From a plasmid: a stretch of 64,000 nt of DNA. Of this stretch, positions 3,765 through 22,193 are shown piece by piece; within the stretch, counting starts at the first letter, position 1, and each line of letters opens with the position of its first letter. Below the pieces are notes generated by a model. That model did no database searches, was not told the DNA's origin, and saw only the letters and a list, made by a program, of their open reading frames with translations. The position numbers and the translations under genes are program-made. The stretch lies in sequence record NZ_CP104760.1; one strand, given 5' to 3'.

Positions 3765-3800
3765 TGTCTTTTCCTTGTGATGTTGAATGAAAAGCAGCTG

Positions 3801-5429: not shown

Positions 5430-5838
5430 AGCGTACCTCTCTGCGCGCGTCGGAGCCGATGCGCCACTGACCCGCACCGGTAATGGCCAGCGTGGTAAAG
5501 ATAATCAGTAGCAGCCAGCCAAACTGGCCTTCGGCAATGCTCCAGCCGGGGTGGACAACGGTCATGGCGACCAGCAGCACGCCGATAATCGGCAGGCAGG
5601 CGAGCCGGGTAAACAGGCCGAACAGGATAAAAATCGGGCAGATAACTTCGGCAAATATAGCCGGGATCAGGCTCATATAAGGACCGAGGCCAAAGGGATC
5701 CTCGATCCGCGTCAGTTCTTCACTGAAGTGAAACACCTTCGGCAGGCCATGCACGTAGAGCAACAGCAGGCAGCCGGTCAGGCGCAGGAAGAACAGCCCC
5801 GCATTAATGCGGGGCGGCTGAGAAAATCGCGTCGTCAT
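5416..5838 (-). CDS. DoxX-family membrane protein
   Basis: 140 aa with 4 TM-like segments. DoxX-like pattern (LRLTGCLLLLYVHGLPKV...). Overlaps the MFS start by 14 nt. Confidence 0.65.
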   Translation of the reverse strand: MTTRFSQPPRINAGLFFLRLTGCLLLLYVHGLPKVFHFSEELTRIEDPFGLGPYMSLIPAIFAEVICPIFILFGLFTRLACLPIIGVLLVAMTVVHPGWSIAEGQFGWLLLIIFTTLAITGAGQWRIGSDARREVRYGAG

Positions 5839-5843
5839 GGCGA

Positions 5844-7721
5844 TTAAAACGCGAAGCAGCTGCAGCCGAGCACGCCCCAGAAGGCGTTCTCCTCGGACAC
5901 CGGCAGGCTGGCGCCGCGCGCGATATCATGCGAGTGGCTGTGCACGCCGCACGGACCGCTGCACTGATGAGGCATTTGCTGCATCCCTACGCGGGTTGCT
6001 GCGGTCGGCGGCGCGCTGCGGTAGTGACCCGGCACCTTGACGACCGGCGACCACTCCGGCAGAACCGGAATAGAGGGCGGCGCTTCACTGTTAAACGCGC
6101 CGGCGGCGTAGACGATATTGCCGTCCACCAGGGTCAGCACCGACTCGATGCCTTTGATCTCCTCTTCCGGCACGCTGAAGTAGTCTTTGCTCAGCACCAC
6201 CATATCAGCCAGCTGGCCCGCTTTGATTTGACCTTTTTTACCCTGCTCGCTGGAGAACCAGGCGCTGCCCTGCGTCCACAACATCAGCGCGGTATCGCGA
6301 TCGAGACGCGCGTTGACGTCATACATCTGCATGCCGCCGACGGTACGGCCGGAGACCAGCCAGTAGAGCGCGGTCCAGGGGTTATAGCTGGCGACGCGCG
6401 TGGCGTCGGTGCCCAGGCCAACCGGTACGCCGGTCTCCAGCATACGCGCCACCGGCGGCGTGTGGCGGGTCGCTTCAATACCGTAACGCTCGGCAAAATA
6501 TTCGCCCTGGAACGCCATGCGGTGCTGCACCGCAATGCCGCCGCCCAGCTCTTTGATACGGTCGATATTGCGCTGGGTGACGGTCTCCGCATGGTCGAAG
6601 AACCAGTGCAGGCCGTTGAACGGGATCTCGCGGTTAACCTTTTCAAATACGTTGAGCATGCGGTCGATCGATTCGTCATAGGTAGCGTGCAGGCGGAACG
6701 GCCAGCGATGCTCCACCAGATGGCGCACCACGCGCTCCAGCTCATCCTCCATGCCCGGCGCCAGATCGGGACGCGGCTCGAGGAAATCTTCAAAGTCGGC
6801 AGCAGAGAAGACCAGCATCTCTCCCGCGCCGTTGTGGCGGAAGTAGTCGCTGCCCTGGCCCGGCGTCAGCATATCGGTCCACTTTTCAAAATCTTCCAGC
6901 TCGTGTCCCGGCCGCTGAGTAAAGAGGTTATAGGCGATGCGGATCGTCATCTGCTTCTTCTCATGCAGCTCGGCGATGACCTCATAGTCTTCCGGGTAGT
7001 TTTGAAAGCCGCCGCCCGCGTCGATGGCGCTGGTGAGGCCGAGACGGTTCAGTTCGCGCATAAACTGGCGGGTGGAGTTGATCTGCTGCTCCAGCGGCAG
7101 CTTCGGCCCTTTCGCCAGCGTGGCGTAAAGGATCATGGCGTTAGGACGCGCGATCAGCATGCCGGTCGGGTTGCCGTTGCTGTCGCGCTGAATTTCGCCG
7201 CCCGGCGGGTTCGGCGTATCTCGGGTGTAACCCACCACTTTCAGCGCGGCGCGGTTGAGCAGGGCGCGGTCATAGAGGTGGAGGACGAACACCGGGGTAT
7301 CCGGCGCGGCTTCGTTGATCTCGTCCAGCGTCGGCATGCGGCGCTCGGCGAACTGAAACTCGGTCCAGCCGCCCACCACGCGCACCCACTGCGGCGACGG
7401 GGTGCGTAGCGCCTGCTCTTTCAGCATGCGCAGCGCATCGGCGACCGAGGGCACGCCTTCCCAGCGCAGCTCCAGATTGTAGTTCAGGCCGCCGCGGATC
7501 AGGTGCAGGTGCGAGTCGTTAAGGCCCGGCACGGCAGTATGGCCCTTCAGGTCGATGACTTTGGTGCCTTCGCAGTGGTGCTGCATGACGTCAGCCAGGC
7601 TGCCCACTTCCAGAAATTTGCCGTCGCGGATGGCAACGGCATCGGCGATTGGGTTGCCGCGATCGACCGTATGAAACCGGCCATTAGTGAGAATGACGTC
7701 TGCTTTACCAAGGGTAACCAT
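5844..7721 (-). CDS. amidohydrolase-3 family metal-dependent hydrolase (YtcJ-like) with Cys/His-rich C-terminal tail
   Basis: 625 aa. Metal-binding HxH motif (LNDSHLHLIRGG). N-terminal pattern ILTNGRFHTVD typical of Amidohydro_3. ~40-aa tail CSGPCGVHSHSHD...GCSCFAF. Confidence 0.8.
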   Translation of the reverse strand: MVTLGKADVILTNGRFHTVDRGNPIADAVAIRDGKFLEVGSLADVMQHHCEGTKVIDLKGHTAVPGLNDSHLHLIRGGLNYNLELRWEGVPSVADALRMLKEQALRTPSPQWVRVVGGWTEFQFAERRMPTLDEINEAAPDTPVFVLHLYDRALLNRAALKVVGYTRDTPNPPGGEIQRDSNGNPTGMLIARPNAMILYATLAKGPKLPLEQQINSTRQFMRELNRLGLTSAIDAGGGFQNYPEDYEVIAELHEKKQMTIRIAYNLFTQRPGHELEDFEKWTDMLTPGQGSDYFRHNGAGEMLVFSAADFEDFLEPRPDLAPGMEDELERVVRHLVEHRWPFRLHATYDESIDRMLNVFEKVNREIPFNGLHWFFDHAETVTQRNIDRIKELGGGIAVQHRMAFQGEYFAERYGIEATRHTPPVARMLETGVPVGLGTDATRVASYNPWTALYWLVSGRTVGGMQMYDVNARLDRDTALMLWTQGSAWFSSEQGKKGQIKAGQLADMVVLSKDYFSVPEEEIKGIESVLTLVDGNIVYAAGAFNSEAPPSIPVLPEWSPVVKVPGHYRSAPPTAATRVGMQQMPHQCSGPCGVHSHSHDIARGASLPVSEENAFWGVLGCSCFAF

Positions 7722-7850
7722 AGAAACTCCTGAATGAAGGCGTCCGAAGCGGCAAGATCGGCCGTGGACAGCGCATTGTCCTGCCGTAAGTGCAGGTGAC
7801 TGGGATGGCGGGATTATGATCGGGAGGTCTGGAAAGCGTCTAGTTATACA

Positions 7851-7890
7851 AAAGGATAGGTATACGTTCGTATAGGTATACCTAAGGATA
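7851..7890. promoter_or_regulatory. repeat-rich candidate operator in divergent intergenic region
   Basis: AAGGATA-GGTATAC-gttcgt-ATAGGTATACC-TAAGGATAA. Direct repeats AAGGATA x2 and ATAGGTATAC x2. Palindromes GGTATACC and TATACG-tt-CGTATA. Confidence 0.3.
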
Positions 7891-8031
7891 ATAGTTTGAA
7901 AAAGAAAAGGTTCCTACACTGCGCTCAGACAGTGACCCACCGGTAGCGCGACATCCCGCCACTGGGTTAACAGGAAAACTGTTATTTACTGCCGTTAAAT
8001 TTTTCCACGGTATGTAGCCATACTAACCTCA

Positions 8032-8736
8032 ATGGGCAAAGACATGACCAATCGCAAACTTGAAGTACTGACGCCGCAAAACTGCCAGATCATCTTTATC
8101 GACCAGCAGCCGCAGATGGCTTTTGGCGTTCAGTCAATGGATCGCCAGGTGCTGAAAAACAACGTCGTGGCGCTGGCGAAAGCGGCGAAAGTCTTCAACA
8201 TTCCGACCGTACTGACTACCGTTGAGACAGAGAGCTTCTCTGGCAACACTTTCCCGGAGCTGCTGGACGTGTTCCCGGGCCAGGACATTCTTGAGCGCAC
8301 CTCAATGAACTCCTGGGACGATCAGAAAGTGCGCGACGCTCTGGCGGCAAACGGCAAGAAAAAGGTGGTGGTTTCAGGCCTCTGGACCGAGGTGTGCAAC
8401 AACTCCTTCGCGCTGTGCGCCATGCTGGAAGGCGATTATGAAATCTATATGGTAGCTGACGCATCAGGCGGCACCACTAAAGAGGCGCACGACTACGCGA
8501 TGCAGCGCATGGTTCAGGCTGGCGTGATCCCGGTGACCTGGCAGCAGGTGATGCTGGAATGGCAGCGCGACTGGGCCCATAAAGAGACCTATAACGCCGT
8601 TATGGACATTGCGAAAGAGCACTCAGGCGCTTACGGCATCGGCGTCGATTACGCCTACACCATGGTTCACAAAGCACCTTCTCGCCAGAAGAGCGAACAC
8701 CGTACGCTGGCGCCGGTTCCTGCGAACGTTCGTTAA
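8032..8736 (+). CDS. isochorismatase-family hydrolase (YcaC-like)
   Basis: Aligns by eye along its length with E. coli YcaC (NIPTVLTT, VSGLWTEVC, VADASGG). Start may be ATG 8044 (MTNRKL) rather than 8032. Confidence 0.8.
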   Translation: MGKDMTNRKLEVLTPQNCQIIFIDQQPQMAFGVQSMDRQVLKNNVVALAKAAKVFNIPTVLTTVETESFSGNTFPELLDVFPGQDILERTSMNSWDDQKVRDALAANGKKKVVVSGLWTEVCNNSFALCAMLEGDYEIYMVADASGGTTKEAHDYAMQRMVQAGVIPVTWQQVMLEWQRDWAHKETYNAVMDIAKEHSGAYGIGVDYAYTMVHKAPSRQKSEHRTLAPVPANVR

Positions 8737-8794
8737 TCTCGCCAGCTGGCCGGTGGTTCCTGTGGCCGGCCAGCCATGCTGGAAAGGAAAACCT

Positions 8795-9046
8795 GTGACT
8801 CCTTTATTGATCTCTCTGGGCGCGGGCGTGTTAATCGGCCTGGTTTACGCGCTGCTCAAGGTCCAGTCGCCCGCTCCGCCAGCGGTCGCGCTGGTGGGAC
8901 TGCTGGGTATGATCGTTGGCAGCTCCCTGGGCGGCGGGCTGTTTCACCGCGAGGCATCCGCTGTCGTTCCGGTAAAGGAGCAGACGCAGGGTGCCGCGGA
9001 TAAACGCGCGGTATCCCCTCCACTGACCGCGAAACAGGCGAACTGA
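8795..9046 (+). CDS. XapX-domain (DUF1427) small membrane protein
   Basis: GTG start 8795 after AAAGGAAAA. LISLGAGVLIGLVYALLKVQSPAPPAVALVGLLGM matches the XapX-domain signature. No in-frame ATG after the upstream gene stop. Confidence 0.55.
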   Translation: MTPLLISLGAGVLIGLVYALLKVQSPAPPAVALVGLLGMIVGSSLGGGLFHREASAVVPVKEQTQGAADKRAVSPPLTAKQAN

Positions 9047-9303
9047 TGATGCTGAAAACCTATTCTGTTTCGCTGGCGGCTGGCATGCTGGCCGGTCTGA
9101 TTTACGCCGCGCTGGGCGTGCATTCACCGGCACCGCCAATCGTTGCACTGCTGGGGCTGTTTGGCATGCAGGTGGGCGAACACCTTATTCCGCTGGTTAA
9201 AAGCGTGCGTCGCCGTCAGCCGGTTAACCTGCGCTGGTTTCGCCATGAATATCAACATAAAATCGGCGACACACCCCCGCCCTCAGGTGACAAAGCCCCC
9301 TAA
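9046..9303 (+). CDS. XapX-domain (DUF1427) small membrane protein, paralogue of preceding gene
   Basis: MMLKTYSVSLAAGMLAGLIYAALGVHSPAPPIVALLGLFGM. The start overlaps the previous stop (ATGA), indicating translational coupling. Confidence 0.65.
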   Translation: MMLKTYSVSLAAGMLAGLIYAALGVHSPAPPIVALLGLFGMQVGEHLIPLVKSVRRRQPVNLRWFRHEYQHKIGDTPPPSGDKAP

Positions 9304-9347
9304 GGAAGCGCCTCACGCAGGCCTGAGTTTCACGTAAGGAAAACAGC

Positions 9348-9737
9348 ATGCAGCTGTCGCAGCGCATCGTCGTCGTCGTCGATGATGAACGTTCTGTCCG
9401 CAATGGGCTTACCAACTTGCTTCAGTCTGAAGGTTATCTCACCCAGGCTTTTGAATCGGCAGAATCGCTTCTCTGTGATGAAGGCGCGATGGCGAATGCC
9501 GCGCTGTTTATCATTGATGTGCAACTGAAAGGCATGAATGGTTTCGAGCTTTTCATTAATCTTACCCGGCGGCTCTCCAGTCCGCCGGGTATTCTCGTTT
9601 CCGGCAACGGAGATGACAGCATGCTGCGGTACGCCATCGATCTTGGCGCAGTCGCTTTTTTGCCAAAACCTATCGAGATTGATACGTTGTTTGAACATAT
9701 CCGTCAGGCGTTCTCCTCGAGGGCCGCTCGCCAATGA
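9348..9737 (+). CDS. stand-alone response-regulator receiver (CheY-like) protein
   Basis: 129 aa. Acidic pocket VVVVDDE. Phospho-acceptor Asp in FIIDVQLKGMNG. Conserved Lys in AFLPKP. No output domain. Confidence 0.85.
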   Translation: MQLSQRIVVVVDDERSVRNGLTNLLQSEGYLTQAFESAESLLCDEGAMANAALFIIDVQLKGMNGFELFINLTRRLSSPPGILVSGNGDDSMLRYAIDLGAVAFLPKPIEIDTLFEHIRQAFSSRAARQ

Positions 9738-12700
9738 GCATCAATCCGCAAACGTCAGATTTAGCAGAAAACGATCCAATCGCGCTGTCAGACGATATCT
9801 CCTTTAGCCCGCTGGCGCAGGAGGGCAATGTTGAGTGGATTCTGTGTCGACATGCGGTTACCGGCGAAACCTTTGTGCTGGCTACCGCAGGCAATGAAGA
9901 GTCGGTTTTTCAGGTTACGCAACTGCTGAAAAATGAGTATGCGCTGCGTGCCAGACTCTCTGAGCGCTGGGCGTTAAAACCCCTGAGCCACACGCTCTGT
10001 CAGGGCCGTTACGCCCTGATTTACAGCGCCTTTAACTACCGTACGCTGGCGGATATCCTCAGTATGCCCCCTGGCGGCATCGCTGAATTTCTTGCCAGCG
10101 CAACGCTGCTCTGCAATACGCTGAGCCTGATGCATCAGCAGGGTCTGGTGCACGGCGATATCAAACCGGCGAACTTTTTTTACAGCGATGAAGGCACCGT
10201 TCACCTTGGCGGCTTCGGACTGGCATCGGTAGACAGCGACCTGCTTCAGCAGCCGCGCCTGCCGGTCGCGGGCGGCACGCTCGCCTATATGTCGCCTGAG
10301 CATACTTCCCGCTCAGCGCACCCTGTGAGCCGCGTGAGCGATTTGTACAGTCTGGGTATTGTGCTGTATGAGTTACTGACCGGCAGGCTCCCTTATGGCA
10401 ATGCCGATGGCGGCCATGCAGAGTGGGTACACCATCATATTGCGTCAGAAGCGCTGCCGCCTCATCTGATACGACAGGAGATCCCGGCTGTTCTCTCCGC
10501 CATCATCTTACGGCTGCTGGCGAAATCGCCGGAGTACCGTTACCAGACGGCGGAAGGGGTGCTGGCCGATCTGCGGCGTTGCGCATCGACGCTGAGGCCG
10601 GATGGAAAGATAGAGACTTTTGCTCTTGGCATGCAGGATTCTCAGGCTGCGAATTTATCATCCGACGCGCTCTGTTCGGATCATCCTCAGGCGACCGATA
10701 TTCTGGCGGCTTTCGACGAGGTCAGCAGAAGCGGCAAACACAGTCTGGTGGTGATAAGCGGCGCGCCGGGCGCGGGCAAATCTTCGCTGATCGCCTCGTC
10801 GTTTAAGCTGCTGCGGAATAAGAACGCCCTGATGACCGTCGTTAAGGCGGACCGCCACTCTCCCGTTTTACCCTACGCTGTTTTTACCGCCGCCTTCAGA
10901 ACGCTGACGCTGCATGTGCTGGGTCTTCCCACCGAAGAGATGACGCGCTGGAAGGCGCACATCGCCTGCCTGCTGGGCGACTATGCCGGGCTGGCGGTTA
11001 ACCTGGTGCCTGAGCTGGGCGTATTGCTCAATCAGAAAGCAGCTGTTCATACGCATACGCACTCTCTTGACGCCAGAAATCGCTTTAACCTGGTGGCATG
11101 CAGCCTGGTTAAAGCCTTTACGGCGCCGGGCCGTCCGCTGGTTATTCTTATCGACGATGTTCACTGGGCCGACCGCGCCACGCTGCTGCTGCTGCAAAAC
11201 CTGCTGACCCAGAGCGAGGAGATCCCTCTGCTGCTGGCGATTGCACATCGTGACAGCGTTTCGTTACCCTGCGCCGCGATAGCCGAGAATCTGAAAGCTG
11301 TCCGGGCCTGCGCGGCCCGCATTACGGATATCACGCCCGAGCCCTTTTCAGTAAAAAAGATAACAAACTGGCTGGCCGGGCTTTTTCATACCCGCAGCGG
11401 CGAGACGGAAGAGCTGGCGCAGCTTATTCACGAAAAAACCGCAGGCAACCCGCTCGCAACGCATGATTTTTTTCGCCAGGCGCTGCGCGACGGCTTTATA
11501 TCCCATAACGCGCCATTTCGCTGGGCCTACGACGCGCAGGCGATCAAAAACTGCCACTATGCGGCAAACGTCGCGGCCAGCGTGTTGCAGCATCTGACCA
11601 CGCTGCCGCTGCCGACCCGCCATCTGCTGGGGAAGTTTGCCTCTCTGGGCAGCGCAGGTGAGCTGGATACCATGAGCAGCATCCTCGATCTCGCCGTGGC
11701 GGAGATTGAACGGACGCTTCTGCCAGCGGTAGTGGCAAAGCTGATTTCGCTGAACGGCAGGGAGTACGCTTTTATGCATGACAGTATGCATGAGGCGGCG
11801 CTTAATCTGCTGGAACCCGCCGAACAGGATGCCTTCCATTATCTGGCCGCGCTGCACTATATGCATAAGTCGAACGTCGACATCACCAGTGCCGTTCTTT
11901 TCAGGGCCGCGCACCACCTGCTGACGATAAAAAACAGCGGGCTGCTGGCGCATGATGCGCATACCTTCGGTCAGCTGCTGCTGAAAGCGAGCAGGCGAGC
12001 AAAAGATAGCGGCGATTATTTCTCGGCGCTGCGATACCTGCGAACCGCGCGCTTGCTTCATGACAGCACGGGCAGCGCCGATCAGGGGGAGTTTTTACTT
12101 GAGGAGGCCGAGTGCGAATTCCTTAACGGCAACCTCGCTGTCGCGCTGGCGTTGTGCTCAGAAATTGCGGCCTCGCCCGGCGAAATAACGGAGAAAGCTG
12201 AAGCGGCCTGTCTGATCGCCGAAATTCATATGCGCCAGTCAGACAGCAAACTCGCGCTGGAGACTGCGCTTGCCTGGCTGGCGGTGTTCGGCATTCAGCT
12301 CAACCGCTACCCGGACAGCAAAGAGTGCGATGCGGCACGGATCCTCCTCAAAGAGGCGGTCGGTAAAAACCCCTATTCCCGGTTCCGCGCGCTGCCGCTC
12401 CTCAACTGTAAAAAAACAGAAGCGGTCATGAACCTGATGGCCAGCGCCAGCACCTTTGCCGCCTTCAGCAATCCGCGGCTGCACTTTATGATCCTGTGCC
12501 AGCTCCTGCATCTGACGATGGCGCGCGGCCTGAGCGGCGCATCGACTCTCGCCTTATCCTGGTATGGCGTGGTGTGCGGCGATCAATATGCTGAATACAG
12601 CCGGGGATTCGCCAGTACGCTTCTGGCGCGCGAGCTGGTGTATAAACATGATTTTGTGAGTTTTAAAGCGCGTACGCTTCTTCCGCTTGATCAGGTCAGC

Positions 12701-15301
12701 GTCTGGACGATGCCGCTGACCTATGCCATTGAACGCGCAAAAGCCGCCTTTGACGTCGGGGTTGAGACCGGCGACAGGACGTCAGCCTGCCTGGCGCTGC
12801 GCCATATGGTGATGAACTATCTTGCCCGCGGCGACCATCTGGAGGCTGTCCATACCTCTGTCACGCGCGGCATGCTGTTTGTCCGTAAGGCGCAGTATCG
12901 GGACGTAGAGGTCGTTCTGAGCATGCAGCTGGATTATATTCAGTTCCTGCGTAAGCCGCGCGGAAGCGAATTTTCAGGCCGCGATTTCCTGCCTCCGACG
13001 CTGGAGGCGGTGAAAGTTGAAAACGCCGTTGAGCCTATGTATCTGATCCAGTTCTGGACGCGGCTCTATAAAGGCATGGCGCACTTTTTCGCCGCTGAAT
13101 ATGCCTGCGCCGCGCAGTACTTCGCCGATGCAGCGCCCTTTACCGACCATATTCCCGGCCATGTGCACATGCTGGATTTCCATCTCTACAGCGCGCTGGC
13201 GCTGACGATACCGCTGAAGCCTGGTCCCCTCAGCGGCCCGTTACGCCAGCAGCTGCAGCTGCATCTCGACAAACTCGTCACCTGGGCGAACGAAAACGCA
13301 AAAACCTTTTCAGACAAAGAGGCGCTGCTGCGCGCTGAGCTGCTGCGCCTTGACGGAGAGGCTGCGCTGGCGTCCGAACAGTTTGAAAAAGCCATCGCTT
13401 TGTCGCGCGAAGGGCAGTTCCATCATATCAACGGGCTGGCGTGCGAGCTGGCAGCGCGTATGGCGTATGCGAGAAATATGGCGTTCTCGGGCGATGCCTA
13501 TATCAAAGGGGCGATATCCGCCTGGGATCGCTGGGGCGCGGGCGCGAAGGTGCGCCAGCTGGAGATGCAGTATCCCTCTGTTACCGGACATCACACGCAG
13601 ACCGCGCTGAGCACCGTCTCCTTTGAGCAAAGCGCGGTGAGCAGCGATCTGCAGAGCATGGTGACGGTGATGCGCGCGCTCACCGAGGAGATCAATCTGG
13701 ATCGCCTTATTCATATTCTGATGATGATGCTGGTCGAGCGGGCAGGGGCGCAGCACTGCATGCTGATACGGCTGACCGAGGGCAATATACCGGAAATTCA
13801 GGCGAGGGCGTCCACTACCGTCGAAGGGGTGAAGGTCAAAATTGTGCGCGAACTCCCCACCGCGACCGATCTCCCGCTTTCGGTTTTATCTGCGGTGATC
13901 CGCACCGGCCAGGAGATTCGCACCGGTAAGCCGGAGGTATTCAGCCCCTTCAGCCAGGATAATTATCTGGTGGCGTCTGGCGCGGCGGTCATGTGCGTGC
14001 CGATGTTCCGGCAGGCGCAGATGGTCGGCGTGCTCTATCTGGAAAACCGGCTGATGCCTGACGTCTTCACCGCCGATCACTCCAGGATCGTATCAATGCT
14101 CGGGGCGCAGGCCGCCGTCTCTCTTGAGACCGCTCGCCTCTATGCCGAACTGGTCGATGAGAACAACCAGCGCCGCAAAATCGAAAAGCAGCTGCGCGCC
14201 AGTCAGACGTCGCTGATGCTGGGGGAGAAAATAAGCCATACCGGCACCTGGCACTGGCACGTTGAGCCCGACATCCAGTACATCTCCGACGAATATAAAC
14301 GCATCATGGGGCTGCCGGACTCGCAGACCACCACCTCAATGGCGGAGTTTCAGCGTCGCGTTCACCCGGACGATATTCTCTCTCTGCGGGAGCTGATTGA
14401 GACCAGCGTTGAGAAAGGCGTCGTTATGCAGGCGGAGTTTCGCATTATCCGCGATGATGGCGAGTGTCGGTACATTAAAGGCATTGGCGAACCAAACGAT
14501 AACTGGCCTGAAGTGGCGGAGTATTTCGGCACCCTGACGGATATCACCGCGCAACGCCAGTCTGAGGATGCGGTCAGGATCGCGCAGGCGGATCTGGCTC
14601 GCGTCGCCCGCGCGACCACGGTGGGCCAGCTTACCTCTTCCATCGCTCATGAGATCAACCAGCCGCTGATGTCGATTGTAGCGAACGCTGGCGCGGGTCT
14701 GAGATGGCTGAAGCGCGAACCGCCGCAGCTGGAAAATGTCAGCCAGAGCATGGAGGAGATTATCCGGGAAGGTCGCCGCGCGGGCGATATTATTCGCGGG
14801 CTTCAGGCGCTGACCCGTAACCAGGCGGCGGAGTTCGCTCCGGCAAGGCTGCACCCTATCGCGCGGGATATATTAAACCTGTCGCGGCTTGAGCTGGAGC
14901 GCCGGTTCGTCTCCCTTGAGCTGAACCTGGCCGCTGAGAGTGATGAAATTTTTTGTGAGAGCGTACAGATTCAGCAGGTGCTGCTTAACCTTGTTATCAA
15001 CGCCATCGAAGCCATGACCGACAACGCGGGTATGAGCATCCTGCGTATTTCCTCCTCCCAGCCGGGCGACAACCTTATCCGTATGGAGGTCGCTGATAAC
15101 GGTACGGGCCTTTCCGATGAGATGATCGGAAAAGTGTTCGATTCGTTCTACACCACCAAAGCGGAGGGAATGGGCATGGGGCTGACGATCAGCAATGAAA
15201 TCATCAAACGTCATGGTGGAGAATTACGGGCGGAAAACCGCCCGGAAGGCGGGTGCGTTTTCTGGTTTACGCTGCCTTTGGCGCCCGCATCTCAAGCCTG
15301 A
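9734..15301 (+). CDS. 1855-aa multidomain sensor: protein-kinase-like domain / AAA (STAND-like) ATPase / helical repeats / GAF / PAS / histidine kinase
   Basis: Kinase-like motifs HGDIKPANFF and AYMSPE. Walker A GAPGAGKSS and Walker B LVILIDDVHWAD. GAF-like region ~aa 1290-1450. PAS-like region ~aa 1480-1600. HK H-box SIAHEINQPL, N-box LLNLVINAIEAM, G1 DNGTGL, G2 GMGMGLTIS. ATG overlaps the upstream REC stop (ATGA). Confidence 0.85.
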   Translation: MSINPQTSDLAENDPIALSDDISFSPLAQEGNVEWILCRHAVTGETFVLATAGNEESVFQVTQLLKNEYALRARLSERWALKPLSHTLCQGRYALIYSAFNYRTLADILSMPPGGIAEFLASATLLCNTLSLMHQQGLVHGDIKPANFFYSDEGTVHLGGFGLASVDSDLLQQPRLPVAGGTLAYMSPEHTSRSAHPVSRVSDLYSLGIVLYELLTGRLPYGNADGGHAEWVHHHIASEALPPHLIRQEIPAVLSAIILRLLAKSPEYRYQTAEGVLADLRRCASTLRPDGKIETFALGMQDSQAANLSSDALCSDHPQATDILAAFDEVSRSGKHSLVVISGAPGAGKSSLIASSFKLLRNKNALMTVVKADRHSPVLPYAVFTAAFRTLTLHVLGLPTEEMTRWKAHIACLLGDYAGLAVNLVPELGVLLNQKAAVHTHTHSLDARNRFNLVACSLVKAFTAPGRPLVILIDDVHWADRATLLLLQNLLTQSEEIPLLLAIAHRDSVSLPCAAIAENLKAVRACAARITDITPEPFSVKKITNWLAGLFHTRSGETEELAQLIHEKTAGNPLATHDFFRQALRDGFISHNAPFRWAYDAQAIKNCHYAANVAASVLQHLTTLPLPTRHLLGKFASLGSAGELDTMSSILDLAVAEIERTLLPAVVAKLISLNGREYAFMHDSMHEAALNLLEPAEQDAFHYLAALHYMHKSNVDITSAVLFRAAHHLLTIKNSGLLAHDAHTFGQLLLKASRRAKDSGDYFSALRYLRTARLLHDSTGSADQGEFLLEEAECEFLNGNLAVALALCSEIAASPGEITEKAEAACLIAEIHMRQSDSKLALETALAWLAVFGIQLNRYPDSKECDAARILLKEAVGKNPYSRFRALPLLNCKKTEAVMNLMASASTFAAFSNPRLHFMILCQLLHLTMARGLSGASTLALSWYGVVCGDQYAEYSRGFASTLLARELVYKHDFVSFKARTLLPLDQVSVWTMPLTYAIERAKAAFDVGVETGDRTSACLALRHMVMNYLARGDHLEAVHTSVTRGMLFVRKAQYRDVEVVLSMQLDYIQFLRKPRGSEFSGRDFLPPTLEAVKVENAVEPMYLIQFWTRLYKGMAHFFAAEYACAAQYFADAAPFTDHIPGHVHMLDFHLYSALALTIPLKPGPLSGPLRQQLQLHLDKLVTWANENAKTFSDKEALLRAELLRLDGEAALASEQFEKAIALSREGQFHHINGLACELAARMAYARNMAFSGDAYIKGAISAWDRWGAGAKVRQLEMQYPSVTGHHTQTALSTVSFEQSAVSSDLQSMVTVMRALTEEINLDRLIHILMMMLVERAGAQHCMLIRLTEGNIPEIQARASTTVEGVKVKIVRELPTATDLPLSVLSAVIRTGQEIRTGKPEVFSPFSQDNYLVASGAAVMCVPMFRQAQMVGVLYLENRLMPDVFTADHSRIVSMLGAQAAVSLETARLYAELVDENNQRRKIEKQLRASQTSLMLGEKISHTGTWHWHVEPDIQYISDEYKRIMGLPDSQTTTSMAEFQRRVHPDDILSLRELIETSVEKGVVMQAEFRIIRDDGECRYIKGIGEPNDNWPEVAEYFGTLTDITAQRQSEDAVRIAQADLARVARATTVGQLTSSIAHEINQPLMSIVANAGAGLRWLKREPPQLENVSQSMEEIIREGRRAGDIIRGLQALTRNQAAEFAPARLHPIARDILNLSRLELERRFVSLELNLAAESDEIFCESVQIQQVLLNLVINAIEAMTDNAGMSILRISSSQPGDNLIRMEVADNGTGLSDEMIGKVFDSFYTTKAEGMGMGLTISNEIIKRHGGELRAENRPEGGCVFWFTLPLAPASQA

Positions 15302-15333
15302 AGCAGGGCGATCCAGGCAGCAACGGGGCGCGG

Positions 15334-15948
15334 TTAGCTTTGCTCAGGCAGACCCAGCTTTTCCGCCGCCCTGACGAGGTCCGAGACTGACCGGACCGCC
15401 ATTTTTTCCATTACCCTGCGCTTATGCACCTTAGCCGTTATTTCGCTGATCCCCATTTCAGCCGCAACCTGCTTGTTCAGCAGGCCGCGAATAACATACT
15501 GCATAAGCTCTTTCTCGCGCGGCGTCAGCGAACTAAAGCGCGCGGTCATTGCTCGCTTCTCCTGCGACGCCAGCGCGCATTTTTCCGACAGCGCCAGTGC
15601 TTCTGAAACCACCCTCAGCAATGCGTCCGGCATAACGGGCTTGGTGAGGAACTCAAATGCACCCGCCTTCATCGCCCTGACGGTAAGCGGGATGGTGCCA
15701 TACCCGGTCAGAAAGATGGTCGGAATCGAATAGCCCCGCTCCGTCAGATGAAGCGAGACATCAAAACCATCAAGCTCCGGCATGTTCAGATCCACTATCA
15801 GGCAGCAGGGCGTACTGTAATCGGCCTGGTCAAGAAAGGCAGACGGAGAGAGAAAAGTCGAAACCTGGTAACCTTCGGAACTGAGAAGGTTCTGCAGCGA
15901 GGCGATGACCGATTCTTCATCATCAACGATATAAATTGTTTTATCCAT
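15334..15948 (-). CDS. FixJ/NarL (LuxR-type HTH) family response regulator
   Basis: 204 aa. Receiver motifs IYIVDDEES, LIVDLNMPELDG, AFEFLTKP. C-terminal LuxR HTH (LTPREKELMQYVIRGLLNKQVAAEMGISEITAKVHKRRVMEKM). Confidence 0.9.
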   Translation of the reverse strand: MDKTIYIVDDEESVIASLQNLLSSEGYQVSTFLSPSAFLDQADYSTPCCLIVDLNMPELDGFDVSLHLTERGYSIPTIFLTGYGTIPLTVRAMKAGAFEFLTKPVMPDALLRVVSEALALSEKCALASQEKRAMTARFSSLTPREKELMQYVIRGLLNKQVAAEMGISEITAKVHKRRVMEKMAVRSVSDLVRAAEKLGLPEQS

Positions 15949-16454
15949 AAGGATGCATTCTGGCTTTTATTCTTTCTGTGTTTGCAGGCGAGTCAATATA
16001 TCCTGAACGCAGTATGAATGGAATCATCCATTGTAATGGCTAACAGCGTCATGCGTCGCTTACCCGGCTGATATTGTGCAGGTTTTAACGGCACAGAGGA
16101 AAATCATATTGATATTTTATCAGGCAACACATCATTTTCTGTTTATGCCTCGTCCTTATCACCAGGCAAGTTTTAGCATGTTAGTCTATATATTAAGGCA
16201 GTTAATCCAGCGTCTGTAATAATTCTGTCGCAGAACTTACAGACTATTCCGCTTGCAGGGTTTATGTCGCGTTTCTGGTTGGTTATTTATAGCCGCAGCT
16301 TTTTTAAGAGCCTTTTTTCACCGTTAATTCTGGTTTAAAAAATGTCGCTGACGCTGGCGTTTTATTTATATGAGATCCCGCAGAAAGAGGGCGCAGGCGG
16401 CTTTTAAAATCGCCGCGTGCGGTTGAGTAATTAGCGGAAAGTCGTCAGGCAGCC

Positions 16455-17264
16455 CTAACGCAAAGGCAGACATGAGTCGGGAAGGGCGCTGCGGTGTTTA
16501 TAGCACAGGGAGAAGAAGGCAAAAATCAGCACCAGTTCTGCGGCATCCCCGCCGTAATACATCCATTCCGCCGCCGCCTCTATTTCACTTAACGGGCTCA
16601 TGGTCGCGCGTGGATAACCGTAGCCATACATGATCTTTGCAAGAATGCCATGGGCCGCCGTCGCCAGAAACAGAACGGCGAGGCGCATCGCCCTGCCGGG
16701 ACGACGCGGCGCAGGATCGGGGCCCGCAATCGACCAGGTGAACAGATAGCCGGAGAGGACAAAATGGAGGTGCAGGAAAACAAACGCCGCGGGATGGGTC
16801 ATGCTAAACAGATAAAACGGCGTCAGGTAGAGCAGGTACATGCCGCCGATGTCGAGCACCGCCGCAGTGACAGGATGAATAAGCACACGAACGGGTCGAG
16901 CGTTAAGGAACGCCATCAGCCTGCGTGACATTTCGCGCGATGCGTTACGCAGCAAAAGTATCCCCGGCGCGCCAAATACCAGGCCGAGCGGGCCAAACAT
17001 GCCCAGCAGCAGATGCTGAACCATATGACCGCGCATATCCCGGTGGGCCCAGTCTGCTATCGGCGGCAGCATCGCCGCCATAATCATCAGGATCCCGGCG
17101 GAAAAGCTCGCCGTTCGCCAGCCGCTCCAGCGCGAGCGGGGCGAGCGCCGCAGTCGATAAGCGTAAAAGAGATAAACGCAGAGTATCAGCGCGGGCAGCA
17201 CAACCAGCAGCAAAAGCAGCAGCGCCGTGGCGCTCGACGAGCCATGATGCATGGCGTGATCCAT
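16455..17264 (-). CDS. CtaG/Caa3-type cytochrome-oxidase-assembly-factor-like (COG3336) integral membrane protein
   Basis: 269 aa with ~7 TM segments. Conserved His pair in HMVQHLLLG. Family assignment from memory of the CtaG/CopD-like pattern, moderate confidence. Confidence 0.5.
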   Translation of the reverse strand: MDHAMHHGSSSATALLLLLLVVLPALILCVYLFYAYRLRRSPRSRWSGWRTASFSAGILMIMAAMLPPIADWAHRDMRGHMVQHLLLGMFGPLGLVFGAPGILLLRNASREMSRRLMAFLNARPVRVLIHPVTAAVLDIGGMYLLYLTPFYLFSMTHPAAFVFLHLHFVLSGYLFTWSIAGPDPAPRRPGRAMRLAVLFLATAAHGILAKIMYGYGYPRATMSPLSEIEAAAEWMYYGGDAAELVLIFAFFSLCYKHRSALPDSCLPLR

Positions 17265-17713
17265 CAGCGTTTCCCTGCCGACCGGCGCAGCAACATCCAG
17301 CCGATAAGCAGCAGTAGCAACCCTGCTGCATTCCAGGTCAGATCGTACAGCAGCAGGTTATCTACGTATCGGACCTGATGCAGACGGAGAAGTTTATGAT
17401 CGACGATGCCATCAAACAGCTGGAATCCACCGAGGCCAAAAAAGAACCCCGCCCAGGCGGGCAGGCGATCTATCGCCTGACGACGGCGTAAATCGGCGAA
17501 TAAATAGAATCCCGCGACAAAAAAGATCAGCTCGCCGGAGTGCAGTATCCCGTCGGACAGCAGGCTGAACGCTGGCGTGCCCCAGTCAAAAAAATGGTGC
17601 CAGGCAAGGAGCTGGTGAAACACAACTTCATCCAGCGCAGCCATCATCCCCACCCCAAGCGGGATCGTTGCCATCAGTGACCGCCGGGGATCTTTCCGCT
17701 CCGGTAAGCTCAT
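17264..17713 (-). CDS. DUF2243-like membrane protein
   Basis: Start ATG 17713 with strong RBS AGGAGAGG. Stop overlaps the start of the CtaG-like gene. 4 TM-like segments. Confidence 0.55.
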   Translation of the reverse strand: MSLPERKDPRRSLMATIPLGVGMMAALDEVVFHQLLAWHHFFDWGTPAFSLLSDGILHSGELIFFVAGFYLFADLRRRQAIDRLPAWAGFFFGLGGFQLFDGIVDHKLLRLHQVRYVDNLLLYDLTWNAAGLLLLLIGWMLLRRSAGKR

Positions 17714-17845
17714 TGTCCTCTCCTGAGGTTGTCTGGTTTTCTTTGCCGTAAAATCCTGGTAAAAAAATGCGAGAAGTCCAGTTTTTAACTGAAGGTTCTT
17801 CACCATGACCGTTTCGCTTTCCGACTAGCAGCCAGGCGCGCGCCG

Positions 17846-18748
17846 TTATTTTTTCTCATAGCGCGCAATCTCGTGCGGCGCACGTAAACTTATCCATTCG
17901 ACAAAGCTGCGATGTTTGGCCACGTAATGCACATCCTGCCGCCAGAGCAGATGAATGGGGCGCGGCGCAGGCAGTGCATCCTCCAGCAGCGGAACCAGCC
18001 GCCCGGCCGCGATATCGTCAGCTAACAAAAACCGCGGCTGTAAAATCAGCCCCGCGCCTGCCAGCGCGGCGCGGCGTAAAGCCTGTCCGTCGTTACAGCT
18101 AAAGGTTGCGTTCTCCGGCCACAGCAGGCTGTCGCCGCTACGCCAGCCGTTAAGGCTGTTCCAGTTGCTGTAGCGCAGACAGCGGTGCGTTTTCAGCGCG
18201 TCCGTACTTTGCGGCGCACCATAGCGCGCCAGGTAGGCAGGAGCGCCCGCGATGACCATACGGTAGTCGCCCAGACGCTGAGCGACCAGCGGCGTATCAG
18301 TGGGCAGCTCGCCGATACGGAAAACAAAATCAAAACCCTCGGCAACGACATCGACAAAACGATCGCTGAGATCAAGCTCAATATGCACGTCGGGAAACTG
18401 CTGCTGAAATTCACTGCATAAGGGCGCAACAAGCGTGCTGCCCAGCGTTGTCGCGGCGCTGATGCGAAGGCTGCCGGCAGGAAAACGACGCAGGCTTTCT
18501 ATACGGTTCTCGGCTGAGTGGAGCGCATCAAGCACGTGAAGGCACTCTTCATACCAGGCCTTACCCGCTTCCGTCAGGGTCTGGCGACGGGTATTACGCT
18601 GCAGCAGCCTCGCCTGTAGCTGCGTCTCCATCTGCGCGACGGTTTTTCCCACCATCACTGAAGAGATATCGAGCCGCTTTGCCGCTTCGCTAAAGCTGCC
18701 GCTCTCGACCACCGCAACGAAAACCTCCATGCCGCGTAGTTTATTCAT
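17846..18748 (-). CDS. LysR-family transcriptional regulator
   Basis: LysR HTH: MEVFVAVVESGSFSEAAKRLDISSVMVGKTVAQMETQLQARLLQR. 300 aa. Confidence 0.85.
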   Translation of the reverse strand: MNKLRGMEVFVAVVESGSFSEAAKRLDISSVMVGKTVAQMETQLQARLLQRNTRRQTLTEAGKAWYEECLHVLDALHSAENRIESLRRFPAGSLRISAATTLGSTLVAPLCSEFQQQFPDVHIELDLSDRFVDVVAEGFDFVFRIGELPTDTPLVAQRLGDYRMVIAGAPAYLARYGAPQSTDALKTHRCLRYSNWNSLNGWRSGDSLLWPENATFSCNDGQALRRAALAGAGLILQPRFLLADDIAAGRLVPLLEDALPAPRPIHLLWRQDVHYVAKHRSFVEWISLRAPHEIARYEKK

Positions 18749-18849
18749 GATTACTAACTTTTAGTTTGGGATGTTTTAATTTTTGGCCTGTTTTTCTGCT
18801 GATTGCAATCTATCAATATGGAATCAGGTTTTATTAATGAGGAATTACA

Positions 18850-19446
18850 ATGAAAGTCATGGTAATTGGCGCCAGCGGCACCATTGGCCGGGCGGTAGTG
18901 GATAATCTTGCCCCGGATCACGACATTATTCGGGTGGGTAAAACCCAGGGCGATCTGCAGGTTGACCTGACGGATGAGTCCAGCGTTAAGCGGCTGTTTG
19001 AGCAAAGCGGCGAGCTGGACGCTATTATCGCGGCGACCGGCAGCGTTCACTTCGGCCCCCTAAATGAGATGAGCAGCGAGCAGTTCAATAAAGGGCTGCA
19101 GGATAAGCTGATGGGGCAGGTCAGGCTTGTGCTGATCGGACAGCACTATCTGAAGCCCGGCGGCGTCTTTACGCTCACCACCGGAATTCTGACCCAGCAC
19201 CCTATCCGCACCGGCGTTAACGCGACGGCGGTCAACGGCGCGCTGGAAGGGTTCGTGCTTGCCGCAGCCAATGAGCTGCAGGGGCAGCGTATTAATGCGG
19301 TCAGCCCAACGGTTCTTACTGAAGCGCTGGAGAAATATGGCCCCTTTTTCCCCGGTTTCGAAAGCGCCGCAGCCAGCCGCGTCGCGCTGGCCTATCGCCG
19401 GAGCCTGGAGGGCATTGATAACGGCAAAGTTTACCGCGTCTGGTAA
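18850..19446 (+). CDS. short-chain dehydrogenase/reductase-like NAD(P)-binding protein
   Basis: Rossmann motif VIGASGTIGRAV. 198 aa. Divergent from the LysR gene. Confidence 0.7.
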   Translation: MKVMVIGASGTIGRAVVDNLAPDHDIIRVGKTQGDLQVDLTDESSVKRLFEQSGELDAIIAATGSVHFGPLNEMSSEQFNKGLQDKLMGQVRLVLIGQHYLKPGGVFTLTTGILTQHPIRTGVNATAVNGALEGFVLAAANELQGQRINAVSPTVLTEALEKYGPFFPGFESAAASRVALAYRRSLEGIDNGKVYRVW

Positions 19447-19467
19447 GAGTGATACGCGCTGGCGAAA

Positions 19468-19746: not shown

Positions 19747-19758
19747 CTTTAAGCCTCC

Positions 19759-20829: not shown

Positions 20830-20850
20830 AGGCGCTCCTCCAGCTATCGG

Positions 20851-22146: not shown

Positions 22147-22193
22147 CTGGCGAACTCCTTGAGCGTAGCGGCTGCCAGGCAGCCGTTTCAGGG

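Follow-up and report, generated by a model that had tools for sequence, protein, structure and literature searches.

The three signalling genes described here encode a single-domain receiver (REC), an 1855-amino-acid sensor kinase and a response regulator. They are best explained as the control unit of a ten-gene hydrolase and efflux island that is conserved and, in most cases, carried on plasmids, with the large protein acting as a soluble 'dual kinase' sensor like those of the HstK/CP1 type; this explanation as a whole is given a probability of about 0.6. The island spans positions ~2940-15948 of the window, i.e., the 64,000-nucleotide stretch of plasmid record NZ_CP104760.1 that was analysed. 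The original prediction described a self-contained cassette with no obvious target operon and with unrelated flanks. Instead, the signalling genes sit in a conserved ten-gene block that consists of two divergent operons with a common promoter region and an operator array between them.

The leftward operon begins with a gene for an Amidohydro_3 metal-dependent hydrolase (5844-7721, minus strand; Pfam Amidohydro_3, 450.6 bits). It continues on the same strand with genes for a DoxX-family membrane protein (5416-5838; Pfam DoxX, 52 bits) and an MFS_3 (EntS-like) transporter (3801-5429; Pfam MFS_3, 610 bits; the start is the PGAP start from a near-identical plasmid record), both syntenic, and ends with an alpha/beta hydrolase gene (2940-3764; Pfam Abhydrolase_1, 129.9 bits). 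The alpha/beta hydrolase is syntenic in most loci at 80-93% amino acid identity, and the Amidohydro_3 protein shows 89-97% amino acid identity across genera despite diverged synonymous sites. The rightward operon, on the plus strand, starts with a gene for a YcaC-like isochorismatase-fold cysteine hydrolase (8032-8736; Pfam Isochorismatase, 98.8 bits), which is 90-98% identical in amino acids across genera. Two DUF1427/XapX-like small membrane protein genes, the receiver gene and the kinase gene follow. DUF1427 protein a has a GTG start and was placed at 8795-9046 by translation (Pfam DUF1427, 57.9 bits); PGAP annotates an identical protein in the near-identical plasmid record, and an open reading frame at 8776-9003 was rejected for this gene as it is in the wrong frame. 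DUF1427 protein b (9046-9303; Pfam DUF1427, 87.1 bits) is over the cutoff for the NCBIfam XapX domain (60.1 bits). These mini-proteins had been regarded as an unrelated flank, but both are members of the receiver-kinase operon.

Characterised close relatives of the island enzymes were not found in NCBIfam and PDB comparisons. The alpha/beta hydrolase matches no NCBIfam model at cutoff (the best is PcaD-like, 106 bits versus 256), and the YcaC-like hydrolase scores 131.9 bits against NCBIfam YcaC, under the cutoff of 310. PDB relatives are YcaC (1yac, 4wgf) for the latter and uncharacterised hydrolases only for the Amidohydro_3 protein.

The receiver (9348-9737, plus strand; Pfam Response_reg, 73.2 bits) comprises 129 amino acids and displays a complete pocket, with acidic D12/D13, acceptor D57, S85 and K107. 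The response regulator (15334-15948, minus strand) is a 204-amino-acid protein of the FixJ/NarL family with a receiver and a GerE HTH (Pfam Response_reg, 89.4 bits; GerE, 65.3 bits), and its pocket is also complete (acidic D9/D10, acceptor D53, T81 and K103). These two genes and the kinase gene (9734-15301, plus strand) are located exactly where the original prediction placed them. The ATGA overlap of receiver stop and kinase start at 9734-9737 is likewise seen in the sequence; it supports translational coupling of the two genes and is conserved in most loci. The regulator gene is convergent with the kinase gene as described, and 32 bp separate the two stop codons. Recurrence of the three genes together is supported: the receiver gene is present beside the kinase gene in all loci, and the regulator gene adjoins it in 24 of ~30 informative enterobacterial loci. 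In Serratia, the regulator gene is found at the opposite end of the block, and the three genes also occur together around a 31%-identical Rhizobium homologue of the kinase.

The best NCBIfam match of the single-domain receiver is the FixJ receiver; the regulator scores 173.7 bits with FixJ (cutoff 255) and 161.9 bits with TtrR (cutoff 290). The alpha1 segments of both proteins read SVxxxLxNLLxSEGY and are 0.56-0.60 identical, compared with about 0.26-0.3 overall. Receiver, kinase and regulator also diverge in parallel across loci. The FixJ-receiver best matches, the alpha1 signature and the parallel divergence together point to a common partner kinase for both receivers.

The operator array, at 7838-7881, is composed of three 12-bp palindrome-like units, GTCTAGTTATAC, GGATAGGTATAC and GTATAGGTATAC, which have the form GTATA-NN-TATAC and a strict 16-bp period. 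The pattern GTATANNTATAC, with at most one mismatch, has three matches in the 64 kb, all in the array, where 0.4 are expected. In an alignment of 26 loci, the array stands out as conserved in an intergenic region that otherwise varies, and an extra 16-bp unit is present in five of these loci. Distant loci carry three units (P. agglomerans), four (Serratia) or five (Leclercia). A sigma-70-like leftward promoter is predicted at 7813-7842 on the minus strand from a consensus match only (-35 TAGACG, 18-nt spacer, -10 CATAAT), and its -35 overlaps the first operator unit. The GGATTATG block, which represents this -10 read on the other strand, is kept in the 26 aligned loci. After the array, at ~7886-7894, there is a conserved AGATAATAG with a plus-strand -10-like GATAAT; the last palindrome is directly upstream of it, in spacer position.

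The REC+GerE regulator is the sole DNA-binding protein conserved with the block and is itself best conserved in its HTH (0.87 identity), and for these reasons it is the candidate array-binding protein. Palindromes of 12 bp suit GerE-type dimers of the NarL/FixJ family, and the leftward -35 lies right against the array, an arrangement seen at activator-dependent promoters. These features, and the association of the regulator with the block in most loci, in Serratia at the other end, speak against a rather unlikely alternative. In this alternative, a different, unlinked DNA-binding protein controls the array, or the REC+GerE regulator is a repressor there, and the two-component system only modulates or serves another output. 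Evidence for it comes from the six of ~30 informative loci in which the adjacent regulator is missing, four of which retain the enzymes and a largely intact operator; in some regulator-less loci a MarA-like AraC gene (family read from N-terminal sequence) is found just downstream. Either the regulator is encoded elsewhere in these genomes or another protein binds the array. In addition, the last palindrome is between the expected -35 and the GATAAT, a typical repressor position, and this placement fits repression as well as activation.

The 1855-amino-acid protein contains the motifs quoted in the original prediction (HGDIKPAN at residue 140, YMSPE at 185, GAPGAGKSS at 343, LIDDVHWAD at 472 and SIAHEINQP at 1636), and every domain claimed for the three proteins is over its Pfam gathering score. 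The large protein has no membrane or signal-peptide domain match. Residues 321-1290 (10694-13603, plus strand) comprise a P-loop NTPase (Pfam AAA_16, 321-500, 85.1 bits), an arm made up of helices and a winged helix, and an extended TPR-like solenoid, for which the TPR_16 match is weak. Walker A K349 and Walker B D474/D475 are present, and the Walker motifs are invariant in 114 homologues. An AlphaFold2 model of this region (pLDDT 84, pTM 0.71) has as its best Foldseek matches 6mfv_A, a STAND-TPR protein (E 3e-11), and MalT 8bob_C (E 3e-6). The model and these matches identify the region as a STAND module of the MalT type.

The module is followed by a GAF domain (residues 1321-1465; Pfam GAF 1321-1464, 38.8 bits), a coiled linker and a PAS domain (residues 1511-1600; Pfam PAS_3 1516-1593, 41.9 bits), encoded at 13694-14533 on the plus strand. 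GAF and linker are the most conserved stretches of the protein (0.83-0.85 identity). The intact histidine-kinase core (14624-15283, plus strand) displays HisKA (Pfam, 1631-1698, 32.9 bits), with H1639 in the SIAHEINQP motif, and HATPase_c (1743-1850, 85.6 bits); the H-box His is invariant (114/114 homologues). The best NCBIfam match of the core is FixL (kinase core only, 183 bits versus a cutoff of 850), and TtrS, AtoS, ZraS and PgtB are also among the best matches. FixL and TtrS have FixJ/NarL-type partners, and AtoS, ZraS and PgtB have NtrC-type partners. The suggestion that this H-box class pairs with NarL/FixJ-type regulators is consistent with the first two but not with the other three.

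The N-terminal domain (residues 38-290; 9845-10603, plus strand) has the eukaryotic-type protein kinase fold that had been proposed (Pfam Pkinase, 38-272, 77.9 bits), but the activity that the name suggests is not supported; the domain is a predicted pseudokinase. PknB aligns with the C-lobe only, HRD is replaced by HGD and DFG by GFG. Three canonical catalytic or ATP-binding features are gone, the beta3 Lys, the Gly-rich loop and the DFG Asp, the last being Gly in 113 of 114 homologues. Judged from these residues, the Hanks-type domain appears to be a conserved, catalytically dead pseudokinase. A degraded active site is not proof of inactivity, and for related DLHK pseudokinases ATP binding in some other way has been suggested (PMC12599244). 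It is nevertheless doubtful that the domain is a working non-canonical Ser/Thr kinase and the protein a true dual kinase, the reading suggested by the NCBI name 'trifunctional', whose signal path would include Ser/Thr phosphorylation of the protein itself, the receiver or the regulator. Consistent with activity are the retained HRD Asp (109/114 homologues) and catalytic-loop Asn (80/114), a nearly invariant SPE motif, a C-lobe under purifying selection (0.67 identity) and the binding of ATP by some kinases that have no canonical Lys or DFG (PMC12599244). On the other hand, all three features are consistently missing together across members of the clade, and also in the Rhizobium homologue with 31% identity, residues 30-62 contain no Lys at all, and by the working criterion of the field the loss of any one of these residues already defines a pseudokinase (PMC12599244).

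The same gene block surrounds the kinase gene in ~35 loci of Erwiniaceae, Yersiniaceae and Enterobacteriaceae, in the genera Pantoea, Erwinia, Tatumella, Kalamiella, Rouxiella, Chimaeribacter, Serratia, Enterobacter, Huaxiibacter, Leclercia and Cronobacter, and synteny still holds where kinase identity has fallen to 51-54%. Genes for the hydrolases and the transporter accompany the kinase in three families, on chromosomes and plasmids alike, and genes outside the block vary from locus to locus. On the right-hand flank, CtaG-like, DUF2243 and LysR genes are not conserved, and the CtaG-like gene is unrelated to the module, as had been said. Within the rightward operon, intergenic gaps are at most 58 bp, there are two start/stop overlaps and no convincing terminator was found; the receiver and kinase genes follow closely on the YcaC-like and DUF1427 genes, in the same orientation. 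These observations, and a conserved operator array that is confined, within the window, to the common promoter region, make it very unlikely that the three genes are an inserted, self-contained regulatory cassette with a regulon elsewhere and unrelated passengers alongside. The unconserved right-hand flank would agree with such a cassette, as would the Rhizobium homologue, which has the three signalling genes without the hydrolase island; moreover, the link of the regulator to the adjacent promoters is one that we infer. An anti-phage or defence sensor (Avs or kinase-defence type) in place of a metabolic regulator is highly improbable: STAND NTPases and Ser/Thr kinases do occur in defence systems and the PADLOC models PD-T4-6, mad6 and MkoA match the kinase fold, but these matches are confined to the generic kinase domain (residues ~60-310), the other island proteins have no PADLOC defence-model match, the output domain is of the histidine-kinase type and comes with two receivers that look cognate, and the partners conserved alongside it encode hydrolases and a transporter.

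The combination of a Hanks domain with a MalT-like AAA/TPR module that controls transcription is found in PknK of Mycobacterium tuberculosis, an active kinase-AAA-TPR-LuxR protein. In contrast to PknK, with its active kinase and fused DNA-binding domain, the protein described here has a degenerate kinase domain and a proposed output by two-component phosphotransfer. With the STAND ATPases of the MalT and PH0952 type it shares a Walker A/B P-loop NOD, a helical/winged-helix arm and a C-terminal TPR-like sensor solenoid, and by analogy its module would switch under the control of ligand and ATP. It differs from them in the added N-terminal pseudokinase and in its output, where GAF-PAS-histidine kinase takes the place of a LuxR-type DNA-binding domain; at the sequence level, no similarity to STAND proteins of solved structure was found.

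The sensor architecture is already known, also under NCBI's 'trifunctional' kinase name, and the protein belongs to a described but little-studied family. The cyanobacterial, cytoplasmic HstK or cbSTKIII 'dual protein kinases' (Anabaena Alr2258 HstK, Pkn40/Pkn41) also unite in one polypeptide a Hanks-type kinase domain at the N-terminus, one or more GAF domains and a C-terminal HisKA/HATPase_c; the HstK papers give expression data for members, not targets (PMC1262709, PMC2176072). By comparison, the 1855-amino-acid protein is enterobacterial and plasmid-borne, its kinase domain is degenerate, and it is tied to a hydrolase/efflux island and two receiver proteins. The CP1 family, which occurs in cyanobacteria and proteobacteria, consists of cytosolic Ser/Thr (pseudo)kinases in which a COG3899-type predicted ATPase is a constant fusion partner and GAF (FhlA-like) or PAS a frequent one; catalytic motifs are degraded in ~40% of members, and almost nothing is known of their function (PMC12599244). 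Membership of the protein in CP1 is assigned by architecture and motif pattern only, and among its nearest 50%-identity cluster representatives GFG outnumbers DFG by ~66 to 25. In the FixL-FixJ-FixT system of Caulobacter crescentus, which also combines a HEINQP-class kinase core, a FixJ-family REC+GerE regulator and a single-domain receiver, that receiver feeds back on the FixL-type kinase (PMC7078487). Unlike FixL, the large protein has no heme-PAS and aligns with the FixL model over the kinase core only; the regulator is under the FixJ equivalog cutoff; and, unlike FixT, the receiver keeps all phospho-acceptor residues and has one Cys only, and is thus not an Fe-S receiver.

Literature searches found no experimental data on any member of the clade; anatomy, synteny and operator conservation are observed, and the remaining steps of the mechanism are those we infer. 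Most likely, a ligand-gated cytoplasmic kinase phosphorylates the FixJ/NarL-type regulator, which switches on both operons, with the single-domain receiver as modulator. An intracellular small molecule would be sensed by the STAND arm, the GAF-PAS region or both, and the Hanks-fold pseudokinase, its ATP- and metal-binding residues lost, is probably a docking or allosteric module. The physiological role of the island is a guess, the molecule probably being a substrate or product of the island hydrolases or a xenobiotic that they detoxify. Sensing may cause a nucleotide-dependent conformational or oligomeric switch that leads to autophosphorylation at H1639 and transfer of the phosphoryl group to D53 of the regulator. 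Regulator dimers would then bind the phased palindromes between the divergent promoters and turn on the Amidohydro_3-DoxX-MFS_3-alpha/beta hydrolase and YcaC-like hydrolase-DUF1427-DUF1427-REC-kinase operons. Because receiver and kinase belong to an induced operon, the circuit would be autoregulated, and the ATGA overlap may ensure that they are made in a fixed ratio. A role of the receiver as phosphate sink or connector is a reasonable hypothesis; it may compete for phosphoryl groups or inhibit the kinase, a feedback comparable to that of FixT on FixL. The locus supplies a candidate regulon and operator for a little-studied kinase family.

The three signalling genes are recovered from the ORF list and translations with the coordinates, strands and overlap of the original prediction. 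The first, at 9348-9737 on the + strand, encodes a single-domain receiver (REC) of 129 amino acids, a bare Response_reg domain by Pfam. The second, at 9734-15301 (+), encodes the 1855-amino-acid sensor, here termed the large protein or the kinase, and its ATG overlaps the TGA of the REC gene in the sequence ATGA at 9734-9737. The third, at 15334-15948 on the - strand, is convergent with the kinase gene, with 32 bp between it and the kinase stop codon, and encodes a 204-amino-acid regulator displaying Response_reg and GerE domains (Pfam). The reading of the large protein as a fusion of a kinase-like fold, an NTPase, sensor domains and a histidine kinase was also correct, and all of its Pfam domains exceed the gathering scores. 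Pfam gives no membrane-domain match for this protein, and its sequence reads as soluble throughout.

The Hanks-type domain comprises amino acids 38-272 (Pkinase, 77.9 bits against a cutoff of 31.7). Among solved kinases, PknB aligns over the C-lobe only (E 4e-27), and in this alignment the HRD and DFG motifs of PknB are HGD and GFG in the large protein. The Gly-rich loop is degenerate and amino acids 30-62, the expected place of beta3, do not contain a single Lys. Full-length homologues of at least 51% identity, 114 in all, were aligned with MAFFT. The Asp of DFG is replaced by Gly in 113 of them and the Lys of VAIK by Thr or Ser, such that the motif reads [VI]LA[TS]; at the Arg of HRD stands Gly, Ser, Asn or Cys, with the Asp of H[GSNC]D kept. 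Of the three canonical residues, the beta3 Lys (VAIK) and the DFG Asp are missing and the HRD Asp is present. In the field, a protein that lacks any one of these three is counted as a pseudokinase (PMC12599244); the domain therefore qualifies, and the kinase domain of this clade is predicted to be catalytically dead. C-lobe identity among the homologues is 0.67, which points to continued purifying selection on a degenerate domain.

The next domain, without another in between, is AAA_16 (amino acids 321-500, 85.1 bits; Pfam), whose Walker A sequence GAPGAGKS (K349) and Walker B sequence LVILIDD (D474/D475) are invariant in the 114 aligned homologues. A sequence search of the PDB yields no sequence-level relatives of the STAND region, and the STAND class was assigned from an AlphaFold2 model together with Foldseek. 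The model, of amino acids 291-1320 (pLDDT 84, pTM 0.71), displays a P-loop alpha/beta domain, helical and beta-hairpin subdomains and a long helical-repeat solenoid. The best Foldseek match is the STAND-TPR protein 6mfv_A (E 3e-11, TMt 0.51) and the second is MalT 8bob_C (E 3e-6, TMt 0.57); SAMD9, CED-4, Roq1, ORC/Cdc6 and an NLR resistosome have lower ranks. STAND proteins of the MalT clade consist of a NOD, a helical/winged-helix arm and a C-terminal repeat sensor. The modelled fold is alike, and on this basis the NTPase and helical region are assigned as a MalT-clade STAND module.

The remainder of the protein consists of GAF (amino acids 1321-1464, 38.8 bits), PAS_3 (1516-1593, 41.9 bits), HisKA (1631-1698, 32.9 bits) and HATPase_c (1743-1850, 85.6 bits) domains, all above the Pfam cutoffs, and the H-box His is invariant in the 114 homologues (MAFFT). 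In NCBIfam the histidine-kinase core is most like FixL, AtoS, ZraS and TtrS, well under every equivalog cutoff. Identity as a FixL oxygen sensor is rejected: the score with the FixL equivalog NF041777 is 183 bits against a cutoff of 850, the alignment is limited to the kinase core (FixL positions 228-484 with amino acids 1597-1852) and the heme-PAS of FixL is unmatched.

REC and the regulator both have full-length Response_reg matches (Pfam). The phospho-acceptor constellation is intact in both, D12/D13, D57, S85 and K107 in REC and D9/D10, D53, T81 and K103 in the regulator, by which they are predicted to be phosphorylatable CheY-like receivers. By sequence, the regulator is a REC and GerE protein of the FixJ/NarL family. 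It is not assigned as an orthologue of FixJ or TtrR, as both equivalog scores are under the curated cutoffs (FixJ NF006900, 173.7 bits against 255; TtrR NF040749, 161.9 bits against 290). Its HTH is the most conserved segment (identity 0.87), with 0.70 in the receiver and 0.43 in the linker. The best NCBIfam match of both REC and the regulator receiver is the FixJ receiver. Overall, the two receivers are only about 26-30% identical in 25 locus-matched pairs, and a helix alpha1 signature, SVxxxLxNLLxSEGY, is common to both, with 0.56-0.60 identity over these pairs. In two-component specificity, receiver alpha1 is the main kinase-docking surface. Because this surface is shared, a single kinase serving both REC and the regulator would fit. 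A His-Asp-His-Asp relay via REC is unlikely because the island is without an Hpt protein. It is more plausible that REC may act as a phosphate sink, competitor or allosteric inhibitor like Caulobacter FixT, a precedent for allosteric inhibition (PMC7078487). The ATGA coupling suggests a fixed REC:kinase ratio.

It had been proposed that the three genes form an orphan cassette with unrelated flanks. This is wrong: when the window proteins were compared with 32 related loci by tblastn, and further distant loci were inspected, the kinase was always found inside the same block of ten genes. The leftward operon, on the - strand, encodes an alpha/beta hydrolase (2940-3764), an MFS_3 transporter (3801-5429), DoxX (5416-5838) and Amidohydro_3 (5844-7721). 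A divergent promoter region of 310 bp lies between the Amidohydro_3 gene and the rightward operon, which begins on the + strand with a YcaC-like isochorismatase-fold hydrolase (8032-8736). This is followed by two genes for DUF1427/XapX-like proteins, the first (8795-9046, +) with a GTG start and overlapping the start of the second (9046-9303, +). A 75-amino-acid ATG ORF at 8776-9003 covers the first of these genes in an incorrect frame and was rejected on comparison with the annotated plasmid record. Neighbouring + strand genes are never more than 58 bp apart and overlap at two junctions, and the operon shows no credible terminator; REC and the kinase thus most likely form the end of the YcaC-like/DUF1427 operon.

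Both a genome scaffold (99% identity) and the 278-kb plasmid p277859 (99.4%) of Pantoea piersonii match the window. The block is found on both chromosomes and plasmids, in Pantoea, Erwinia, Tatumella, Kalamiella, Rouxiella, Chimaeribacter, Serratia, Enterobacter, Huaxiibacter, Leclercia and Cronobacter, and the sequence outside it varies from locus to locus. In Serratia plymuthica the regulator is at the opposite end, having moved with the block, which ties it to the block. A homologue of the large protein in Rhizobium leguminosarum is 31% identical and has the same Pfam architecture and dead-kinase motifs (HKD, GFG, beta3 Lys absent). It adjoins a REC and GerE regulator and a single-domain REC without the hydrolase island, and therefore the triad predates its association with the island. 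Across loci, identity is 89-97% for Amidohydro_3, 90-98% for the YcaC-like hydrolase and 52-78% for the kinase; REC, kinase and regulator diverge in parallel. As third-codon positions have diverged in all island genes (50-76% identity), the conservation of the enzymes represents strong purifying selection and not recent transfer. No insertion signal is seen in base composition, GC being 0.56-0.59 in the block vs 0.53-0.63 in the flanks.

Several loci display duplication or loss. Enterobacter ludwigii E2023-21 has two whole-island copies, one chromosomal (L011) and one on a plasmid (L030), whose kinases share 74% and 77% identity with that of the window, which suggests that they were acquired independently. 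The kinase gene is in fragments in Pantoea sp. Eser, a stink-bug symbiont (L031, 10001-15517), and in Pantoea conspicua it is divided between two reading frames (L027, 10001-15546). P. conspicua and P. brenneri retain only REC and the kinase, without enzyme genes or regulator, and in P. brenneri (L029, 15584-16012) a putative C-terminal fragment of a Tn3-family transposase (translated ORF, by eye) abuts the kinase gene. The broken kinase genes and partial loci point to decay and rearrangement of the island.

Between the two divergent operons, conservation is poor save for one stretch, 7838-7881, with the sequence GTCTAGTTATAC-N4-GGATAGGTATAC-N4-GTATAGGTATAC. It consists of three palindrome-like units with an exact 16-bp period. 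These units are the only three matches to GTATANNTATAC (at most one mismatch) in the 64-kb window, with 0.4 expected; three matches were reached in 1 of 100 shuffles. One additional 16-bp unit is found in five loci (L003, L005, L018, L021 and L030; intergenic, ~8000-8300 in each), and distant loci retain the period with three units in P. agglomerans, four in Serratia and five in Leclercia. The variation in unit number is also seen in L035 (6104-6166) and L036 (6160-6226). The counts of 3, 4 or 5 arise via exact-period insertions, as in a short tandem repeat selected for phase, and with a period of 16 bp adjacent palindromes lie on roughly opposite sides of the DNA. A predicted sigma-70-like promoter points toward the Amidohydro_3 operon (TAGACG-18-CATAAT); its -35 overlaps the array and its -10 is kept in all aligned loci. 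On the opposite side, the array abuts the conserved AGATAATAG.

No DNA-binding protein other than the regulator accompanies the block, and we infer that the array is the regulator's binding site. Regulation from this candidate operator may be positive or negative. The last palindrome is so placed with respect to a -10-like element on the + strand that a repressor would fit as well. Among about 30 informative loci, six are without an adjacent regulator, and four of the six still have the enzymes and an operator that is mostly intact, a weak point of the model. Regulator-less genomes include Ca. Pantoea formicae, two Chimaeribacter species and Pantoea sp. C3. The preferred reading is that the regulator would activate both operons.

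About 25 bp downstream of the array, within CTACACTGCGCTCAGACAGTGAC, is an inverted repeat, CACTG-N8-CAGTG (window 7917-7934), located in what is presumably the 5′ leader of the YcaC-like operon, and retained in most of 26 aligned loci. It could represent a second operator or an mRNA 5′ stem-loop. Rfam finds no match anywhere in the window, this repeat included, and the conserved 5′ region is therefore unexplained by any known riboswitch or sRNA.

Upstream of the regulator gene, at the right-hand end of the conserved block, is an AT-rich, gene-free stretch of ~500 bp (15949-16454) with a sigma-70-like site, TTGACT-16-AAGAAT, at 15996-15969 (-). No copy of the GTATA-NN-TATAC motif is present in this stretch, and the regulator gene is thus probably not autoregulated via the array operator. 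The CtaG-like gene beyond it had been considered unrelated, and it indeed lies outside the conserved block and differs between loci. This non-conserved right flank (16455-25036, -) encodes CtaG-like and DUF2243 membrane proteins, a LysR regulator and, beyond LysR, a D-alanine/beta-alanine-type catabolic set unrelated to the triad (DadX racemase, D-amino-acid dehydrogenase, CoA-acylating semialdehyde dehydrogenase and class-III aminotransferase). Loci without the regulator have a different right-hand neighbourhood in common (L005, 16378-17537; L023, 16588-18870; L009 and L026, ~16300-17500; L029, 18289-19993). By N-terminal sequence, it carries putative MarA/SoxS-like AraC-family, NADPH-dependent FMN reductase-like, porin-like and secreted hydrolase-like genes.

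An anti-phage defence system is rejected, as PADLOC-DB 2.0 gives only generic kinase-fold matches to the large protein (PD-T4-6, mad6 and MkoA, at amino acids ~60-310 only) and none to REC or the island enzymes. The observed anatomy, motif status, synteny and operator conservation are best explained by a circuit to which we assign a probability of roughly 0.6. A ligand would gate the kinase through a STAND/GAF-PAS switch, the kinase would transfer phosphate to both receivers, the regulator would bind the array and activate the two operons, and REC would provide feedback. From the enzyme classes, the island might serve to detoxify or catabolise a compound with an amide or ester group. This is only a guess because the island enzymes have no characterised close relatives in NCBIfam and PDB sequence searches. 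A tentative and rather doubtful proposal is that the pseudokinase and STAND modules form an intracellular, ligand-triggered oligomerisation switch that gates the histidine kinase, as a 'signalosome-type' two-component sensor, whereby a xenobiotic or a plant- or insect-derived amide or lactam would induce hydrolase-efflux detoxification via phased GerE-type sites.

The architecture of the large protein is not new, being already known and widely annotated. Fusions of Hanks kinase, GAF and histidine kinase are on record from Anabaena, under the names HstK and 'dual protein kinases' (cbSTKIII) (PMC1262709, PMC2176072). The CP1 family of bacterial Ser/Thr (pseudo)kinases, which are cytosolic and occur in cyanobacteria and proteobacteria, always has the COG3899 ATPase fusion and often GAF or PAS; about 40% are pseudokinases, and of their role 'almost nothing is known' (2025 review, PMC12599244). 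The large protein has the domains of these HstK/CP1-type dual (pseudo)kinases: Hanks fold, COG3899/AAA_16 ATPase, GAF/PAS, and HisKA with HATPase_c. Close homologues are named 'trifunctional serine/threonine-protein kinase/ATP-binding protein/sensor histidine kinase' by NCBI. With amino acids 1-560 as query, an exhaustive profile-free search gives 7116 clusters at 50% identity with E <1e-30. Among them the enterobacterial clade stands well apart, its next relatives being only 36-42% identical; among these, GFG is commoner than DFG, and the dead-kinase state is hence widespread. Literature searches did not find experimental work on proteobacterial members.

The prediction of a catalytically dead kinase domain corrects, for this clade, the assumption on which the trifunctional-kinase annotation rests. 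The locus offers the family a concrete circuit, with a candidate cognate regulator, a co-translated receiver, an operator array and two candidate target operons, in hosts that are easily manipulated (Pantoea, Serratia, Enterobacter and Cronobacter). What is added is the conserved pseudokinase status, the MalT-type STAND assignment and the ten-gene island with its phased array, and together these three points render a large uncharacterised sensor family experimentally approachable. The biological payoff hinges on the inducing signal and on the substrate of the strongly conserved Amidohydro_3 and YcaC-like hydrolases. If the oligomerisation switch is true, the island would give the CP1 pseudokinase-ATPase fusions, a family of >7000 clusters, their first system that is both genetically tractable and defined in its output.
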